Virus record (IMG/VR): IMGVR_UViG_3300005265_000764
DNA: 24,139 nucleotides
Direction: 5' to 3' (one strand)
DNA from: a virus
This document shows positions 157 through 8,024 of this stretch, piece after piece. The notes under the pieces were generated by a model, which had not been told where the DNA came from, searched no databases, and worked only from the letters and a program-made list of their open reading frames with translations. The stretch's first letter is position 1. Each line of letters opens with the position of its first letter. Position numbers and translations under genes: made by a program.

Positions 157-170
157 GATTGGTGTGGGAA

Positions 171-1016
171 ATGAAAGAAAAAGAAATAATTGAAATCGCA
201 GAGGAATTTCGTAAAGATAAGGAGTTTGAAACATTAAAAAAAGATATACTTGTTAGGGTTAAAGAGAAATTGTTAAAAATAGATAGTTTTCCTTACGACT
301 TTAACTCTAATGTTTTACATGATGTGATACATGACGAAATAGATAGTTTCGTTACAGGAATTAGTAGGGTTAAAGCATTACAGTTGATTGATTTTTGTGA
401 TAATGAGGAATACATAGACGCAGGGGCAATAGACGATAGTAATCTTGATAGAATAATTATGACAACTTGTTATGAGTGTTTGTATTTGAAACTTTTTGAT
501 GATGACTTGTTCATGGAGTTACAGGAGTATGAATTAACAAAAAAACAGAGAGATAGTTTTGTAAAGGAGATAGACGAAAGAATAGGAAAACATAAACATA
601 GTGAAGGTAGACATAGTAAAACACAAATATGGATTAAGACAGGTTTTGAGATTAGACCAGAGATGTTTAAAAAGCCGTATTTTGCAGAAAAACAGGTTAT
701 AGATTTAAATGATGGTATTGTAAAGATTTTAACTAACAATAATGAGATAAATAGAAATGCTGTTGTTTTTGAAAAACATGGAGAGAAGAGATACAGAGTT
801 TACCTGATGGATAAAGATAAGGATATTGATATACGGGATTTTTTTAAATATCGTTCTGTATCCTCACCAGATTATATTTTACATCCAGATTTTTATATAA
901 AAGGTAGAAATGAACCAGTTGGTAATAAGTATCCTTATAAAACAGAGTTTGAAGATAAAAAAGAGTTTATATTTTATGTAAATCAGATGGTAACAGAGTT
1001 AAATAAGAGGGAATGA
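171..1016 (+). CDS. hypothetical protein (~281 aa)
   Basis: Long ORF in the operon; ATG 171 preferred over TTG 159; no recognisable motif. Confidence 0.8.
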   Translation: MKEKEIIEIAEEFRKDKEFETLKKDILVRVKEKLLKIDSFPYDFNSNVLHDVIHDEIDSFVTGISRVKALQLIDFCDNEEYIDAGAIDDSNLDRIIMTTCYECLYLKLFDDDLFMELQEYELTKKQRDSFVKEIDERIGKHKHSEGRHSKTQIWIKTGFEIRPEMFKKPYFAEKQVIDLNDGIVKILTNNNEINRNAVVFEKHGEKRYRVYLMDKDKDIDIRDFFKYRSVSSPDYILHPDFYIKGRNEPVGNKYPYKTEFEDKKEFIFYVNQMVTELNKRE

Positions 1017-1017
1017 A

Positions 1018-1374
1018 ATGACACAGGATAATAAATTTAAAGAGTATGCTTTGGTATATGAACGGATTGTTTATAGTGATGGTTATAAAAGTTGGGATGT
1101 TAATGAGGTTATAACAGGGTTAATGGATAAATTCGGAAAGGAAAATGTTAAACTGGTAGAGGTTACACGTTACGGGGGGAGATATATCAAGATTTATGTA
1201 AAAGGCAATTTAGATAACATGATGGCTAAACAAAGGGAATATTGCAGAAAAAACGGGTTGCCTTTTTTTGCCCCTTACAATGCGATATGCTGGAGTTGTG
1301 GCAGGATTATTCCTGATACTGATAGTTATCATATTACTGGTTGTCCTTATTGTCATAGGAGTTTTTGTGAGTGA
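1018..1374 (+). CDS. hypothetical protein with C-terminal zinc finger
   Basis: CWSCG...CPYCHRSFC at the C-terminus; starts 2 nt after the upstream stop. Confidence 0.8.
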   Translation: MTQDNKFKEYALVYERIVYSDGYKSWDVNEVITGLMDKFGKENVKLVEVTRYGGRYIKIYVKGNLDNMMAKQREYCRKNGLPFFAPYNAICWSCGRIIPDTDSYHITGCPYCHRSFCE

Positions 1375-1379
1375 TAAGT

Positions 1380-1664
1380 ATGAAACCTGAAAATTGGGAT
1401 AAACTGGATAAAGGCGAGAAATACAAAATAGCAGTTGCATTACTTAAAAGTAAGAGGGGAGAGTATATACTTTCACAGGCACTATGTAAAGCAATAGAGG
1501 TTATGAAAAAAGAACCAGAGGGTAAAAGAGAGGTTAGTAATATAGAGGATATGGAGATTTTGTTAGAAATATTTCCACTGTTTAAAATATTTGAAGAGGG
1601 GAAAAAAGTATTTGAAAAGGGGGAAAAAAATGGATTTTATTTGGAAACACAAGGAAGGGGATAA
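1380..1664 (+). CDS. hypothetical protein
   Basis: ORF coupled to both neighbours; ATG 1380 after GAGTGA. Confidence 0.7.
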   Translation: MKPENWDKLDKGEKYKIAVALLKSKRGEYILSQALCKAIEVMKKEPEGKREVSNIEDMEILLEIFPLFKIFEEGKKVFEKGEKNGFYLETQGRG

Positions 1665-2343
1665 AGAAACAGAACTTTTATTCCCTATAAAGATTTATAA
1701 AGCAGTTGATAACGGTTGGCGACCTGAAACACACCTTATTTGTAACAAATGCGATGGGAGAGTATCACAGAAATATATTTGTGAAAAATGTAAAGCAGAG
1801 TATACAATCGGTGAAATAGAAAAAAGACATGATGTTGAACATGATATAATCTATAATATACATGACTATAAAGCATACATGGAGAGTGAGATACCAAAGA
1901 GTGTAAAGGTAGAAGAGGAGATACCTGTAACTGACATTTTACCAAACATTCTTTTTATCAAAAATGTATATGAGATTTATAACAATGATGATAATTATGC
2001 TGATGTTGTTTTAAAAATCTATAACTATCTAAAGAAAAAACAAATAGCCCTTGTAGTATCTTTTGGTAAAAGTCAGAAACAACGGGGGGGGATTATAGTT
2101 GCAACTGATAGGTTGGTATTGTTAGAGTTACGGGATTATCGGCTTATTAGACATGTTAAACAAAGCAATATTGTAGCAGAGGAAAATAATTCTACACAGA
2201 TTTTAAAAGCAGTATCAGAAAGTCAAGAACCACAAATATATGGAAAGTTTGTAGAAGCAGTTGTGAAGGGTGAAAAAATAGAGGTTAAAGAGAAGGTAAA
2301 GAAAGAAAAAGTAATCGTTAATGCTGACTTTTTAGAGGTATAA
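1630..2343 (+). CDS. ku: Ku-like DNA end-binding protein (prokaryotic/phage Ku core) with CxxC-CxxC in the bridge region
   Basis: MDFIWK...FPIKIYKA matches the Ku N-terminus (MRAIWKG...IPVKLYSA pattern). HLICNKCDGRVSQKYICEKCKAEYTIGEIEK matches the Ku bridge (LH..C.GRI.YKRVC..CG.EV...EIVKGYE). IALVVSF...QRGGIIVATDRLVLLELRD matches the later beta strands. Confidence 0.8.
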   Translation: MDFIWKHKEGDKETELLFPIKIYKAVDNGWRPETHLICNKCDGRVSQKYICEKCKAEYTIGEIEKRHDVEHDIIYNIHDYKAYMESEIPKSVKVEEEIPVTDILPNILFIKNVYEIYNNDDNYADVVLKIYNYLKKKQIALVVSFGKSQKQRGGIIVATDRLVLLELRDYRLIRHVKQSNIVAEENNSTQILKAVSESQEPQIYGKFVEAVVKGEKIEVKEKVKKEKVIVNADFLEV

Positions 2344-2345
2344 AC

Positions 2346-2471
2346 ATGATATTAACAATTGCAGAGGATATAGTAACTGATGGCAACATAGAAACAAAGA
2401 TGTGTAAAAACTGTTATGCAACAAATGAAGGATATAGATTGTTTTGTATTAATTGTGGTGAAAGACTATAA
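2346..2471 (+). CDS. 41-aa zinc-ribbon microprotein (below ORF-track cutoff)
   Basis: MILTIAEDIVTDGNIETKMCKNCYATNEGYRLFCINCGERL*; ATG 3 nt after the Ku stop. Confidence 0.7.
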   Translation: MILTIAEDIVTDGNIETKMCKNCYATNEGYRLFCINCGERL

Positions 2472-2492
2472 ATTGTTTATAGGAGATAAAAA

Positions 2493-2714
2493 ATGATAGA
2501 ACTTGAAGAAAAAGTTTTAAAGGTTATAGTGGAAAAACTTAAAACTGTATATACAACAGGGATTATCACAGTAAACGATGCTAAATATAAGATAAAAAAA
2601 GATGGAAACATATCAATTACATTAGTGTTAGAAGAGGATAATAATGTAAACTGGTATTTTCACCCAGTTGATAGCGATATTCCGATAGTAACTGAAAAAG
2701 CAGAGTTGATGTAA
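2493..2714 (+). CDS. hypothetical protein
   Basis: GGAG SD-like sequence upstream; operon context. Confidence 0.7.
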   Translation: MIELEEKVLKVIVEKLKTVYTTGIITVNDAKYKIKKDGNISITLVLEEDNNVNWYFHPVDSDIPIVTEKAELM

Positions 2715-2715
2715 T

Positions 2716-2883
2716 ATGAGTGAACTTGAGTATTTAATGACATGCCCATATTGTAACAAAAAAACAATTGTTATGTTCTCTGGTAGTGGCACTAAAGGGA
2801 GTTGTATGAATTGTGGAAAGAATTTACCCCCTGAAAAACACTACTATGATTATGAAGGTAGTGTAGTGTCGTATAATGGATGA
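2716..2883 (+). CDS. 55-aa zinc-ribbon microprotein (below ORF-track cutoff)
   Basis: MSELEYLMTCPYCNKKTIVMFSGSGTKGSCMNCGKNLPPEKHYYDYEGSVVSYNG*; starts 2 nt after the upstream stop. Confidence 0.7.
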   Translation: MSELEYLMTCPYCNKKTIVMFSGSGTKGSCMNCGKNLPPEKHYYDYEGSVVSYNG

Positions 2884-2914
2884 AGGAAAAATAATATCAT
2901 ATACAGGGATATAA

Positions 2915-3712
2915 ATGTTTGAAGTAATGAAACCAAAAAAGATAGATAGTATTCCTGTGAATAATGAGAGTGAAAAGTATATCTATGAGATTAAATATGA
3001 TGGGGGGAGTGGTATACTTGTTAAACAGGGTGAACATGTAGATGTTTTTCATAACGGGAATAATACTCCTGTAACATATCGTTATCCTGAACTTTTACCA
3101 GAGTTACATAACCTTAAAGATGGAGTGTATATTGCAGAGTTAATAGTGTCTACTAATGACATGGTTGGGGGGGATTTTGATTTATTCCAGAAAAGACAGG
3201 TTGAAAATCGTTTTAAAATAGAAAGACGTAAACAAATGTATCCTATTACAGCGATAGTTTATGATATTGTTAAAAACGATGGTGAAGATATACGGGATTT
3301 AACTCTTTTTGAACGTAAAGAAATACTACATAAAAACGTATGCGATGGTGAACATATACGGGTTATTGAAAGTTTTTCTAATCCTGATAAGATACTTGAA
3401 AAACAGGATATATATGAAGGCATTGTTATCAAGGATATTAATAGTGTTTACAGGAATAGTAAACGTGATGGTTGGTTTAAATATCGTTTTAACAAGGAAG
3501 AGGTTGTCAGATTTGTAGATTTTGAGGATACTGAAACAGGTATTGTTTTACTTACAGAAGAGGGTAAACGTGTTAATCTCGCAGGTAAACGTAGTGAGAT
3601 AGCAAAGGAGAAGATAAAAAATAATGGTTTTGTGGATTGCGAGATTTCTTGGAATAAAAAAACCGATAAAGGTTTTAGGTTTTGTGTAGTAAAAAGAATA
3701 TTGGGGGATTAA
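2915..3712 (+). CDS. lig: minimal ATP-dependent DNA ligase (adenylation domain plus short OB-like C-terminus)
   Basis: Motif I EIKYDG, motif IIIa IVYDIV, motif IV EGIVIK, motif V WFKYR; 265 aa. Confidence 0.9.
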   Translation: MFEVMKPKKIDSIPVNNESEKYIYEIKYDGGSGILVKQGEHVDVFHNGNNTPVTYRYPELLPELHNLKDGVYIAELIVSTNDMVGGDFDLFQKRQVENRFKIERRKQMYPITAIVYDIVKNDGEDIRDLTLFERKEILHKNVCDGEHIRVIESFSNPDKILEKQDIYEGIVIKDINSVYRNSKRDGWFKYRFNKEEVVRFVDFEDTETGIVLLTEEGKRVNLAGKRSEIAKEKIKNNGFVDCEISWNKKTDKGFRFCVVKRILGD

Positions 3713-4145: not shown

Positions 4146-4256
4146 ATGCTGACTAAAGAACAACTTGAAGCAATTGAACAGTTTGAAGCCGAGTTAGAAG
4201 TTAAAGAAAAAGAGAAAAAAGAGATTAACCATCCCTATGGAGATGATTTAATATGA
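4146..4256 (+). CDS. 36-aa acidic microprotein
   Basis: MLTKEQLEAIEQFEAELEVKEKEKKEINHPYGDDLI*; GGGTGAG SD; stop overlaps the PCNA ATG (ATGA). Confidence 0.55.
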   Translation: MLTKEQLEAIEQFEAELEVKEKEKKEINHPYGDDLI

Positions 4257-4948
4257 ATAAAGATTTTAAAGTTAATATTGATAAAAAAGCACTTCTAAAT
4301 GTGTTAAGACGTGTAAAGCCACTTATTCCTGAAATACGTATCTGTTTTAATGCAGAGGGTATACATGTTAGAGAAGTAGATTATGGTCATGTTTGCATGT
4401 ATGATGCAACTATATTTAAAAAATTTAATTTAAATAAGGATGTTGTTTTTTGTGTTGATGTAGAAAAATTTGAAACAGTTTTATCTCTTGTTAAAAGTAA
4501 CAATGTAACTCTTGAGTTTGATGGTAAACTTGTTGTTGATAAAAACTATAAAATTGGTTTACTTGAGATGCCTAAAGAGGATAAGTTGAAAATTCCTAAT
4601 ATTAAATTTGATGTAGAAGTTACACTTGATAGTTTACAACGTATTAAGAGAATAATATCTACAAATGTTAATGATTACTTGACTTTACAGGTTGATAAAA
4701 ATAAAACCTGTTGGGTTGATTTTAAAAGTGATGAAATAGAAATACATGAACCACTTGGTAAGGCACGGATGTTATCAAAAGAAGTAAACTATCCTGTTAC
4801 GGCTATGTATAGTATTGATTATTTTAAAAACATTATACATGACCTTGATACTGCTATTCTCAGATTTTCTACTGATGTTCCTATACAGGTTGTTGAAGAA
4901 AAAGATAACGAAAAGCATTTGTTTTTACTTGCACCACGTATTGAGTGA
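4253..4948 (+). CDS. pcn: PCNA-like DNA sliding clamp
   Basis: 231 aa; EGIHVREVDYGHVCM (D..HV.M motif), VTAMYSIDYFKNI (S.YS.DYL pattern), C-terminal FLLAPRIE typical of archaeal PCNA. Confidence 0.9.
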   Translation: MNKDFKVNIDKKALLNVLRRVKPLIPEIRICFNAEGIHVREVDYGHVCMYDATIFKKFNLNKDVVFCVDVEKFETVLSLVKSNNVTLEFDGKLVVDKNYKIGLLEMPKEDKLKIPNIKFDVEVTLDSLQRIKRIISTNVNDYLTLQVDKNKTCWVDFKSDEIEIHEPLGKARMLSKEVNYPVTAMYSIDYFKNIIHDLDTAILRFSTDVPIQVVEEKDNEKHLFLLAPRIE

Positions 4949-4960
4949 GGGGAAAAAGAA

Positions 4961-5614
4961 ATGACTTGGACAGAGAAGTATAGACCAACATGTTTAGATG
5001 AAGTTGTTGGTCAGGAAAAAGTTGTATCTTATTTCAAGAGATGTTTACAAACTGGAGATATAGACCATTGTATTTTTACTGGGAAGAGTGGAACAGGAAA
5101 AACTACAATGGTAAAAGTAATCGCTAATGAATTCGGTAAACAAGTTATAAAGTTTAGCCCTTCTGATATTAATAAACGTGGTAAAGATTTTGTTCACGAT
5201 GATGTTATACCAGCCATGAGGCATTTATCTATTGACGGGGGTTGGAAGTTAATTTTTATAGAAGAATGTGAAACATTATCACGGCAGGCACAGGAAGAAC
5301 TGCGAACTCCTCTTGAGGATTACTCCCATATTGCAAAAGTGATTTTTGCCTGTAATGATGATAGTAACATTATTCCAGCGATAAAAAGTCGTTGTATCCT
5401 GTTTACTTTTTTACCTATTTCTACACCTGATATGAAAAAACGGTTGCAGGTGATAATTGATAATGAAGGTATTGTAATAGATGAAACTGATTTAGATACA
5501 ATCTGTGAAAAAAGTCATGGAGATTTACGTAAAGCAATCAACTTGTTAAAAGCATATCATAACAATGCTCTTGAATTTAAAGATGAATTTAGTAAATTGT
5601 TTATGAGAGGATAA
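4961..5614 (+). CDS. rfcS: RFC small-subunit-like clamp loader AAA+ ATPase, lacking the C-terminal collar domain
   Basis: WTEKYRP (RFC box II), Walker A GKSGTGKT, Walker B variant IFIEECE, IKSRC (SRC motif), HGDLRKAINLL; only 217 aa. Confidence 0.88.
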   Translation: MTWTEKYRPTCLDEVVGQEKVVSYFKRCLQTGDIDHCIFTGKSGTGKTTMVKVIANEFGKQVIKFSPSDINKRGKDFVHDDVIPAMRHLSIDGGWKLIFIEECETLSRQAQEELRTPLEDYSHIAKVIFACNDDSNIIPAIKSRCILFTFLPISTPDMKKRLQVIIDNEGIVIDETDLDTICEKSHGDLRKAINLLKAYHNNALEFKDEFSKLFMRG

Positions 5615-7100: not shown

Positions 7101-8024
7101 ATGGGTGATGATGAGGAAACACTTGAAGAGTTATTTGAAAAACTGGCACGAGAGAGAGAACCACTTGATTTCCTCTCGCAGTTTATCTGCCCTACGTTAA
7201 TCGGTGACATATGGGAATATATTAGGAAAGCAACTTTACTTCTTCTTGCTACACAAAACGATACAAACACAACAAGGATTAGACTACATACTCTCTTAGT
7301 TGGTTCACCAGGAACGGGTAAAACTGTTTTTTTATCATGGGTACAGGAAAATCTCGGTGGGATTTTAATTAGTTCAGAACATACAAGTAAAACTGGATTA
7401 GTAGGAGATGCTCGTGGTCATCGTATTACTCCTGGTCTCCTCGCTGATTATGATGGTAACATCGTATTACCAGATGAGTTAGACAAGATGAGTGGATTAG
7501 ACCAGAGTGGGCTTTTGCAGGCTATGGAAGAGGGTAAGTACATGATTGTTAAAGGGAAGCAACGTATGGAGTTTGATGCAGAAGTGAGAGTTATCGCTGG
7601 TGCTAATCAACTTGACAAAATTGTTAAACCTCTTCAGGATAGGTTTGATTTTATTTTTAAATTATCTGTTGTTAAACGTGAGAAACGTGCTGAGAATGTT
7701 GATAAACTTATTAAAGCATTTTTTGGAACAAACGAGATGGAAAAAAGTCAGTTGATACTTGAGTATCTACGATGGGTAAAAGACTTTAAACCAGTTATTG
7801 AGGAACAAGATTTTGAAGCTATCTCTGAGATGATGGCTATGTATATTCGTAAGACTTCTACAAAGATTGATAATGTTAGTATTCGTAATCTTGAAATGAG
7901 TATACTGAGGATTGCTTATGCTATGGCTAAACTTGAAAAATCAAATATTAAACCTAAACATGTTAAAAGAGCAATTCTTTTTAAAAATGCTGTTTTGAAA
8001 AAACTCGTTGGAGAACGAGAATAG
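7101..8024 (+). CDS. mcm: MCM-family AAA+ helicase core lacking the N-terminal Zn/OB domain
   Basis: Walker A LLVGSPGTGKT, SKTGLVG, Walker B DELDKM, LLQAMEEG, IAGAN, arginine finger PLQDRFD, sensor-2 SIRNLE; in-frame TAG at 7089 rules out N-terminal extension. Confidence 0.85.
   Translation: MGDDEETLEELFEKLAREREPLDFLSQFICPTLIGDIWEYIRKATLLLLATQNDTNTTRIRLHTLLVGSPGTGKTVFLSWVQENLGGILISSEHTSKTGLVGDARGHRITPGLLADYDGNIVLPDELDKMSGLDQSGLLQAMEEGKYMIVKGKQRMEFDAEVRVIAGANQLDKIVKPLQDRFDFIFKLSVVKREKRAENVDKLIKAFFGTNEMEKSQLILEYLRWVKDFKPVIEEQDFEAISEMMAMYIRKTSTKIDNVSIRNLEMSILRIAYAMAKLEKSNIKPKHVKRAILFKNAVLKKLVGERE

Follow-up and report, generated by a model that had tools for sequence, protein, structure and literature searches.

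A Ku gene and a minimal ligase gene in one co-oriented block

The 24,139-bp stretch of DNA analyzed here (IMG/VR record IMGVR_UViG_3300005265_000764; G+C content ~33%), referred to over its full length as the window, carries on its plus strand, from position 159 to about 8,000, a dense array of co-oriented genes that overlap or are separated by short gaps. Within this array, at positions 1630-3712, a gene for a Ku homologue is followed by a gene for a small ATP-dependent DNA ligase. Prokaryotic Ku binds DNA ends and recruits and stimulates an ATP-dependent ligase, and a sequence-only reading of the window had proposed that the two genes form a self-contained module resembling non-homologous end joining (NHEJ) in an archaeal replicon. 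The two genes and the small open reading frames (ORFs) between them are:

1630..2343, plus strand: Ku homologue of 237 amino acids (aa), recognized by Pfam PF02735, Foldseek, and its invariant cysteines and tail
2346..2471, plus strand: 41-aa zinc-ribbon micro-ORF with CxxC...CxxC; Pfam Zn_Ribbon_1 at E=1.9e-4, below cut-off
2493..2714, plus strand: 73-aa micro-ORF with zero family matches
2716..2883, plus strand: 55-aa zinc-ribbon micro-ORF with CxxC...CxxC; weak S27e-like and Lar-like matches below cut-off
2915..3712, plus strand: minimal ATP-dependent DNA ligase of 265 aa, recognized by PF01068, a structural model, Foldseek and conserved motifs

The Ku homologue

The start of the Ku gene, an ATG at 1630, agrees with the N-termini of its homologues. 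Residues 17-176 matched PF02735 with 37.7 bits (cut-off 25 bits, E=2.6e-9), and the bacterial Ku equivalog model TIGR02772 gave 27.7 bits against a cut-off of 150. An AlphaFold (AF2) model was built from ten sequences, and its Foldseek matches were exclusively Ku proteins with a probability of 1.0, namely B. subtilis Ku 9vnq (E=3.7e-10), M. tuberculosis Ku 9i91 and human Ku70/80. The TM score of the model was only about 0.36, which is low because the arm was modelled as a monomer. The initial assignment of 1630..2343 to Ku is therefore borne out both by a Pfam match above the cut-off and by top structural matches to solved bacterial and human Ku, and the ORF is correctly identified and looks intact.

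Relatives of this Ku are few. A word-indexed search of 5.8 billion proteins returned only nine clusters with 37-98% identity, the closest of which is annotated only as a hypothetical protein from a Thermoplasmata metagenome-assembled genome (MAG). A profile search of all 1.84 billion representatives returned 82 proteins, 65 of them at E<=1e-10 and 49 at E<=1e-30, and the members are 230-270 aa long. Among INPHARED phages no Ku sequence match was obtained, and IMG/VR queried with Ku alignments or single Ku proteins likewise gave no match, some of the alignments being too divergent as queries. Judged by these relationships, the window Ku belongs to a distinct subfamily that is small but real.

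Four cysteines in the bridge region, C38, C41, C51 and C54 (CxxC-x9-CxxC), do not vary in the close alignments or the window subgroup and are conserved to at least 90% across 51 sequences of the clade. They are predicted to form a zinc ribbon. The bridge of Ku was reportedly derived from a zinc ribbon by Krishna and Aravind in 2010, and the conserved cysteines fit this view of its origin. The C-terminal tail, encoded at 2311-2340 of the window, reads ADFLE[V/M/I] and is invariant in the close family, while the pattern [D/S]-F-L-[D/E] is kept across most of the clade. It possibly resembles a short docking motif, for which the ligase or PCNA would be candidate partners.

The ligase

The 265-aa protein had been described from the outset as a KxDG ligase, in agreement with a PF01068 match of E=3.6e-20 and with motif I, KYDGG, at K27. 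A nucleotidyltransferase domain (~aa 1-193) is followed by a putative small OB domain (~aa 194-263). In 19 ligase sequences K27 (motif I), E75, E168/G169/K173 (EGxxxK, motif IV) and K189 (motif V) are invariant, as are the motif VI-like residues R255, K260 and R261. Conservation extends over motifs I, III, IIIa, IV and V and a putative motif VI. The AF2 model is of high confidence (pLDDT 94) and shows a five-strand barrel plus a helix at aa 194-263; this region has no Pfam PF04679 match and is predicted from the model to be the small OB domain.

No DNA-binding domain, latch, polymerase or phosphoesterase was found in the ligase, for which Pfam finds only PF01068 and the AF2 model contains only nucleotidyltransferase and small OB, as had been claimed for the polymerase and phosphoesterase domains. 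The protein begins ~20 aa before motif I and therefore has no Lig1-type DNA-binding domain. A canonical PCNA-binding motif was not noticed by eye. The ligase looks catalytically complete but minimal.

The ligase family comprises 31 clusters with 38-99% identity and lengths of 247-307 aa, and the next-best relative of similar length follows at E=7e-7. Foldseek searches with the model returned DNA ligases of all classes, with archaeal Lig1 leading (best E=1.6e-15). When the family profile was compared with the PDB, archaeal Lig1 came first (E about 3e-18), then human Lig1 (6e-11), and Mtb LigD last (8.7e-4); the Lig1 matches span the adenylation domain only. NCBIfam scores were all far below cut-off: 87 bits for PRK07636, 69.9 for LigD-lig TIGR02779 (cut-off 227.75) and 51.6 for dnl1 TIGR00574 (cut-off 217.8). 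The signals of lineage are thus split, as the PDB ranking favours archaeal Lig1 and NCBIfam slightly favours LigD-lig and PRK07636. The sole matches among longer proteins were true LigD proteins, with 25-31% identity over two thirds of the ligase query.

More familiar identities do not fit. The ligase as a LigD is contradicted by its TIGR02779 score below cut-off, by its lack of polymerase and phosphoesterase domains and by the 25-31% identity to true LigD; as a replicative Lig1 type, by the dnl1 score below cut-off and the absent DNA-binding domain. A horizontally acquired bacterial ku-ligD operon was dismissed because the ligase fails every LigD criterion. The protein instead represents a new family of minimal ligases that is a member of neither LigD nor Lig1.

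The pair is conserved across related elements

Relative contigs were fetched via identical proteins and pattern scans, and were scanned with hidden Markov models (HMMs) from the Ku and ligase alignments. Ku was followed by the ligase in the same orientation in each of the nine lineages with both sides readable. The pair-bearing set consists of:

the window
L001, L002 and L010: a 98% identical strain, 62.7-62.9 kb
L004: 42.6 kb
L005: 59.6 kb
L006 and L007: a 51.6-kb contig of a Thermoplasmatota MAG
L009
L011: 40.4 kb
L014
L016: IMG/VR genome G001 (UViG_3300033145_002956), 51.4 kb, CheckV 100%
L028: a contig of a Thermoplasmatales MAG

The pairing holds down to 35% identity of the ligase and about 29% identity of Ku; the Ku of L009 was recognized by profile comparison with a probability of 100%. 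That the element itself carries both parts, as had been proposed, is thus supported by a survey of related contigs in which the order of Ku and ligase was kept in every readable lineage. An HMM scan of L017-L027, which hold distantly related phage ligases, found no such Ku. G001 lacks a PCNA homologue and shows no more than a sub-threshold MCM-like match in a 649-aa helix-turn-helix protein, and in L028 PCNA, RFC and MCM were undetected among the nine largest flanking ORFs. Replication genes therefore appear to be inconstant partners of the pair. Both the Ku-less distant phage ligases and the inconstant replication genes support a link between Ku and ligase, and the conserved pairing provides strong comparative evidence that this putative link is functional.

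The spacing between the two genes is less constant. In the window it is 571 nt, with exactly three micro-ORFs in it (41, 73 and 55 aa), all co-oriented. CxxC...CxxC occurs in the first and in the third, and the arrangement matches the ~570 bp with three micro-ORFs and two zinc ribbons that had been reported. Homologues of both zinc-ribbon micro-ORFs were found only in L004 and L005, and the 73-aa micro-ORF has a counterpart of 94.5% identity in L004 and none in L005, L007, L009, L014, L016 and L028. Three unrelated small ORFs lie between Ku and ligase in L007, and the spacing is 35-195 nt in L009, L014, L016 and L028. The suggestion that the zinc-ribbon peptides are accessory factors does not survive this comparison, since they are confined to the three closest lineages and are missing or replaced by unrelated small ORFs in five others; they were rejected as core accessory factors, and the micro-ORFs are best regarded as lineage-specific and apparently outside the conserved core.

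The gap also differs in its divergence. The 94.5% identity of the 73-aa micro-ORF between the window and L004 compares with 73% for the flanking Ku and 80% for the ligase, and at the DNA level window positions 2369-2881 are 87% identical to L004 in surroundings of about 75%. This elevated identity suggests either a recent exchange or a strong constraint.

The module mostly lies close to contig ends

In nine of ten long relative contigs the module was located 0-3.2 kb from a contig end and read inward. The distances from the contig end to the start of Ku, or the position of the break, are:

L005, 59.6 kb: 274 nt
L002 and L010, 62.9 kb: 596 nt
L001, 62.7 kb: 623 nt
L016 (G001), 51.4 kb: 1,284 nt
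window, 24.1 kb: 1,629 nt from the window start
L004, 42.6 kb: 1,725 nt
L007, 51.6 kb: 3,144 nt
L006, 20.2 kb: 3,151 nt
L011, 40.4 kb: contig breaks inside Ku
L008, 135 kb: contig breaks between Ku and ligase
L028, 14.9 kb: the exception, with 7.1 kb upstream of Ku

If a circle of 50-60 kb were broken at random, such closeness and orientation would be expected in ~5% of cases per contig, although some of the assemblies may share reads. The clustering of contig ends points to a repeat, a hypervariable spot or a true end of the genome. Many further Ku-bearing contigs were only 0.8-4 kb long.

The end of G001, the only complete relative, could be examined at the sequence level. Its bases 1-130 repeat 50982-51111 in reverse complement, and the contig closes through a direct overlap of 48 nt. 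A stretch of 196 nt in between is itself palindromic, with 110-nt arms that are 93% complementary around a 3-nt centre. The complete palindrome (50982-51355 joined to 1-130; L030:1500-1874) has arms of about 210-240 nt, is followed by Ku 1.2 kb downstream, has a folding energy of -130 kcal/mol (z = -25) and is located exactly at the pseudo-circular junction. One of its arms contains a 27-nt tandem duplication. A palindrome of this type breaks short-read assemblies and is therefore a possible cause of contig ends near the module. It is expected for a circular genome with a palindromic site as well as for a linear one that ends in hairpins or inverted repeats and of which the replicated junction was assembled, and could thus be a hairpin-telomere junction or a palindromic origin. 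Such palindromes are a signature of replicated hairpin-telomere junctions (PMC13685816). No protelomerase (ResT/TelK), tyrosine recombinase or Hjc resolvase was found in G001, and neither the window nor the ends of the other contigs showed a palindrome. The association of the module with a genome discontinuity is probably relevant.

Distribution, host and replication genes

Among 185,579 species-representative genomes the pair was matched only once, on the 14.9-kb contig L028, which has no recognizable housekeeping genes. In the 2.6-Mb Thermoplasmatales MAG that holds L028 (G002), the sole Ku and the sole PF01068 ligase detected are those of the element pair; no other Ku, no LigD and no cellular Lig1 were detected in this MAG, which is possibly incomplete. 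The notion that the module works independently of the host fits this lack of another Ku or LigD in G002, the single host-bin genome that could be searched. Both families are small and distinct and were seen only on element-like contigs binned with Thermoplasmatota.

Downstream of the ligase the window encodes three proteins of DNA replication:

4253..4948, plus strand: PCNA-like sliding clamp; NCBIfam sliding-clamp models with best E=4.1e-24, below cut-off, and a weak Pfam PCNA_N match
4961..5614, plus strand: RFC small-subunit-like clamp loader of 217 aa; NCBIfam PRK00440 E=6.4e-50, below cut-off, and Pfam AAA, RuvB_N and RFC lid domains
7101..8024, plus strand: MCM AAA+ core plus lid of 307 aa, without the usual N-terminal domain; Pfam MCM E=1.6e-19, MCM_lid

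These genes, together with the binning of the nearest relatives in Thermoplasmata or Thermoplasmatota MAGs, uphold the description of the window as an archaeal replicon. Capsid or terminase hallmark genes were not recognizable in the window or in G001 (Pfam, PHROGs), and the element may be virus-like or plasmid-like.

A two-protein end-joining module as the preferred explanation

We consider it reasonably probable that 1630-3712 is a mobile-element-borne, two-protein, Ku-dependent end-joining module that acts on the DNA of the element. A Ku homodimer would thread onto the double-strand ends of the element DNA and hold them, and the 265-aa ligase, co-expressed and itself devoid of a DNA-binding domain, would be brought to these ends, possibly via the [D/S]-F-L-[D/E] tail of Ku, and would seal them. 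Its likely use would be the joining or rescue of linear element DNA, either by circularisation after entry or by repair of breaks made by host nucleases. The strict pairing, the ligase without a DNA-binding module, the persistence of the pair without replisome genes and the apparent lack of host NHEJ fit such a minimal system. Every related element that was examined carries the pair, which is therefore probably a portable kit of two proteins that joins the element's own broken or linear ends in hosts apparently without such a system. The precedents of bacterial Ku-ligase pairs, Mu Gam and the Ku of Omega and Corndog, as well as the location near a genome discontinuity, were also counted in favour of the end-joining module. 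We infer from these comparisons the physical or functional coupling of Ku and ligase, their DNA substrate and the stage of the life cycle at which they act, and also the role of the module, which may be circularisation, break repair (including CRISPR or restriction breaks) or end maintenance. From the self-contained NHEJ-like module of the sequence-only reading, the gene identities stand and the pair proves to be conserved, whereas the zinc-ribbon peptides as partners fall away.

Several observations speak against an end-joining module in archaeal hosts. The window pair shares its co-oriented block with PCNA, RFC and MCM, and the ligase could be a replicative nick sealer; its family has replicative archaeal Lig1 and not LigD as best PDB profile matches. 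A search among longer proteins gave no Ku-ligase fusion, and the scanned ORFs of the window showed neither an NHEJ polymerase nor a phosphoesterase. For Ku the model is only moderately confident (pLDDT 61, pTM 0.59). Furthermore, the Thermoplasmatota-related hosts suggested by MAG labels and by the archaeal type of the clamp, clamp loader and MCM are assigned by binning only.

Some of these points lead to a different explanation, in which the two genes serve separate functions in an early DNA-metabolism block: the ligase would seal Okazaki fragments or nicks together with the PCNA, RFC and MCM of the element, and Ku would be a Gam-like end protector. Minimal viral ligases are commonly replicative, the window ligase lies 540 nt upstream of the PCNA and RFC genes, and its best profile and fold matches are replicative archaeal Lig1; Mu Gam offers a precedent for guarding ends against nucleases (PMC8987985). 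However, Ku and ligase stay adjacent even with PCNA and MCM absent (G001) or undetected nearby (L028), Ku lies directly upstream of every ligase-family member with readable upstream DNA, and the ligase has neither a visible PCNA-binding motif nor the DNA-binding domain that carries this motif in archaeal Lig1. The conserved pairing thus appears to have weakened the Okazaki-ligase interpretation, which we regard as a serious competitor but clearly the less probable one.

Less probable still is a telomere function: the replicon would be linear, Ku would cap its hairpin or inverted-repeat ends, and the ligase would reseal nicked hairpins after the resolution of concatemers. It would account for the contig ends that cluster just upstream of or within the module and for the bounded palindrome of G001 at the pseudo-circular junction 1.2 kb upstream of Ku, as palindromes of this sort mark replicated hairpin-telomere junctions (PMC13685816). 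Yet G001 lacks a protelomerase, a tyrosine recombinase and an Hjc resolvase, a circular genome with a palindromic origin gives the same assembly pattern, no palindrome was found in the window or at other contig ends, L028 continues for 7 kb upstream of Ku, and G001 is a distant relative outside the lineage of the window. If true of a family of linear archaeal extrachromosomal elements, this improbable alternative would provide a prokaryotic, element-borne counterpart of Ku at eukaryotic telomeres and would explain why the module lies beside a genome end or palindrome. Finally, the pair might do nothing for the element, being either passenger cargo or what is left of a cellular NHEJ operon in decay. 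NHEJ genes do move horizontally between bacteria and archaea (PMC7719229), but both ORFs are intact with catalytic and structural residues conserved across 35-99% identity, the ligase is not of the LigD type, and the pair occurs only on element-like contigs, its one match in the 185,579 species genomes being a contig without housekeeping genes, which makes this explanation very hard to credit.

Comparison with known systems

As in the bacterial NHEJ of M. tuberculosis and B. subtilis (YkoV/YkoU), a Ku gene of the homodimer type adjoins a gene for an ATP-dependent ligase, and core size (about 240 aa) and fold of bacterial Ku agree with those of the window Ku. In contrast to LigD, which has polymerase and phosphoesterase domains, the window ligase is without them; moreover, the window Ku keeps a full zinc ribbon and the system is element-borne and archaeal. 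In archaea, the NHEJ system of Methanocella paludicola consists of separate genes for Ku, ligase, polymerase and phosphoesterase. It resembles the window module in being archaeal and in having a stand-alone ligase rather than a LigD fusion (PMC7719229), but it is chromosomal, its ligase is of the LigD family, and AEP polymerase and phosphoesterase are its partners. Ku is rare in archaea, where it was found in 10 of 243 genomes, and horizontal movement of NHEJ genes between bacteria and archaea is documented in the same study (PMC7719229).

Among mobile elements, Ku of the mycobacteriophages Omega and Corndog was reportedly described by Pitcher and colleagues in 2006. Mycobacteriophages with 4-nt overhangs encode Ku and are thought to circularise by NHEJ, and Omega and Corndog use their own Ku to circularise the genome (PMC3706429). 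Like the window element these two bring a Ku encoded by the virus, with the proposed role of joining the ends of the linear genome as it comes in; unlike it they depend on the LigD of the host, whereas the window element brings its own ligase and has an archaeal host. Phage Mu Gam is a Ku homologue that shields ends from nucleases and can promote end joining (PMC8987985). It is thus likewise a Ku-family end binder of a mobile element that can promote joining with a ligase (PMC8987985), but it uses the host ligase, mainly blocks RecBCD and has no adjacent dedicated ligase. The minimal ligases (Chlorella virus ligase, Lig E, and the B. subtilis LigB/PRK07636 type) share the nucleotidyltransferase-OB architecture and the size class of the window ligase; Lig E 6gdr aligns with it at a TM score of 0.69, and PRK07636 is its best NCBIfam model (87 bits). 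In contrast to these, the window ligase scores well under the cut-off of every family, makes up a separate family of 31 clusters and is constantly paired with Ku, a pairing unreported for those ligases.

Ku-ligase NHEJ and virus-encoded Ku are therefore already known, and what is new is a conserved, element-borne pair of Ku and a non-LigD mini-ligase. In the literature no description was found of Ku in archaeal viruses or plasmids, nor of Ku paired with a minimal non-LigD ligase. If the end-joining module is real, no smaller self-contained kit for end joining would be known than Ku with the 265-aa ligase of the element, and this kit would have come together independently of the pairing of Ku and LigD in bacteria. 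Questions that would become testable are how mobile elements of archaea deal with their DNA ends and withstand host nucleases, and whether end joining by a ligase without a DNA-binding domain depends on Ku. A compact two-gene end-joining tool for archaeal or bacterial genetics is a possible use.

Further features of the window and its relatives

Upstream of Ku, the ORF list contains three tightly packed ORFs:

159..1664, plus strand: ORFs of 285 aa, 118 aa (with a C-terminal zinc finger) and 97 aa

The 97-aa ORF overlaps the start of Ku by 35 nt. The three ORFs matched zero families above cut-off, and the 285-aa protein had no useful Atlas match. Inside the 285-aa ORF, 38 nt at window positions 813-850 are identical in L004 against a background identity of 71%, and this segment may be a conserved cis element within coding sequence.

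The MCM and RFC-like replication proteins of the window are truncated versions. The RFC-like protein matches only positions 7-208 of the 322-position RFC small-subunit model, its C-terminal part being absent. In a 98%-identical strain (L011:5858-8305) the MCM gene is split by an intein with a LAGLIDADG homing endonuclease and encodes 815 aa, while the window copy is intein-free with 307 aa. G001 carries inteins in a radical SAM gene and in a phosphodiesterase gene.

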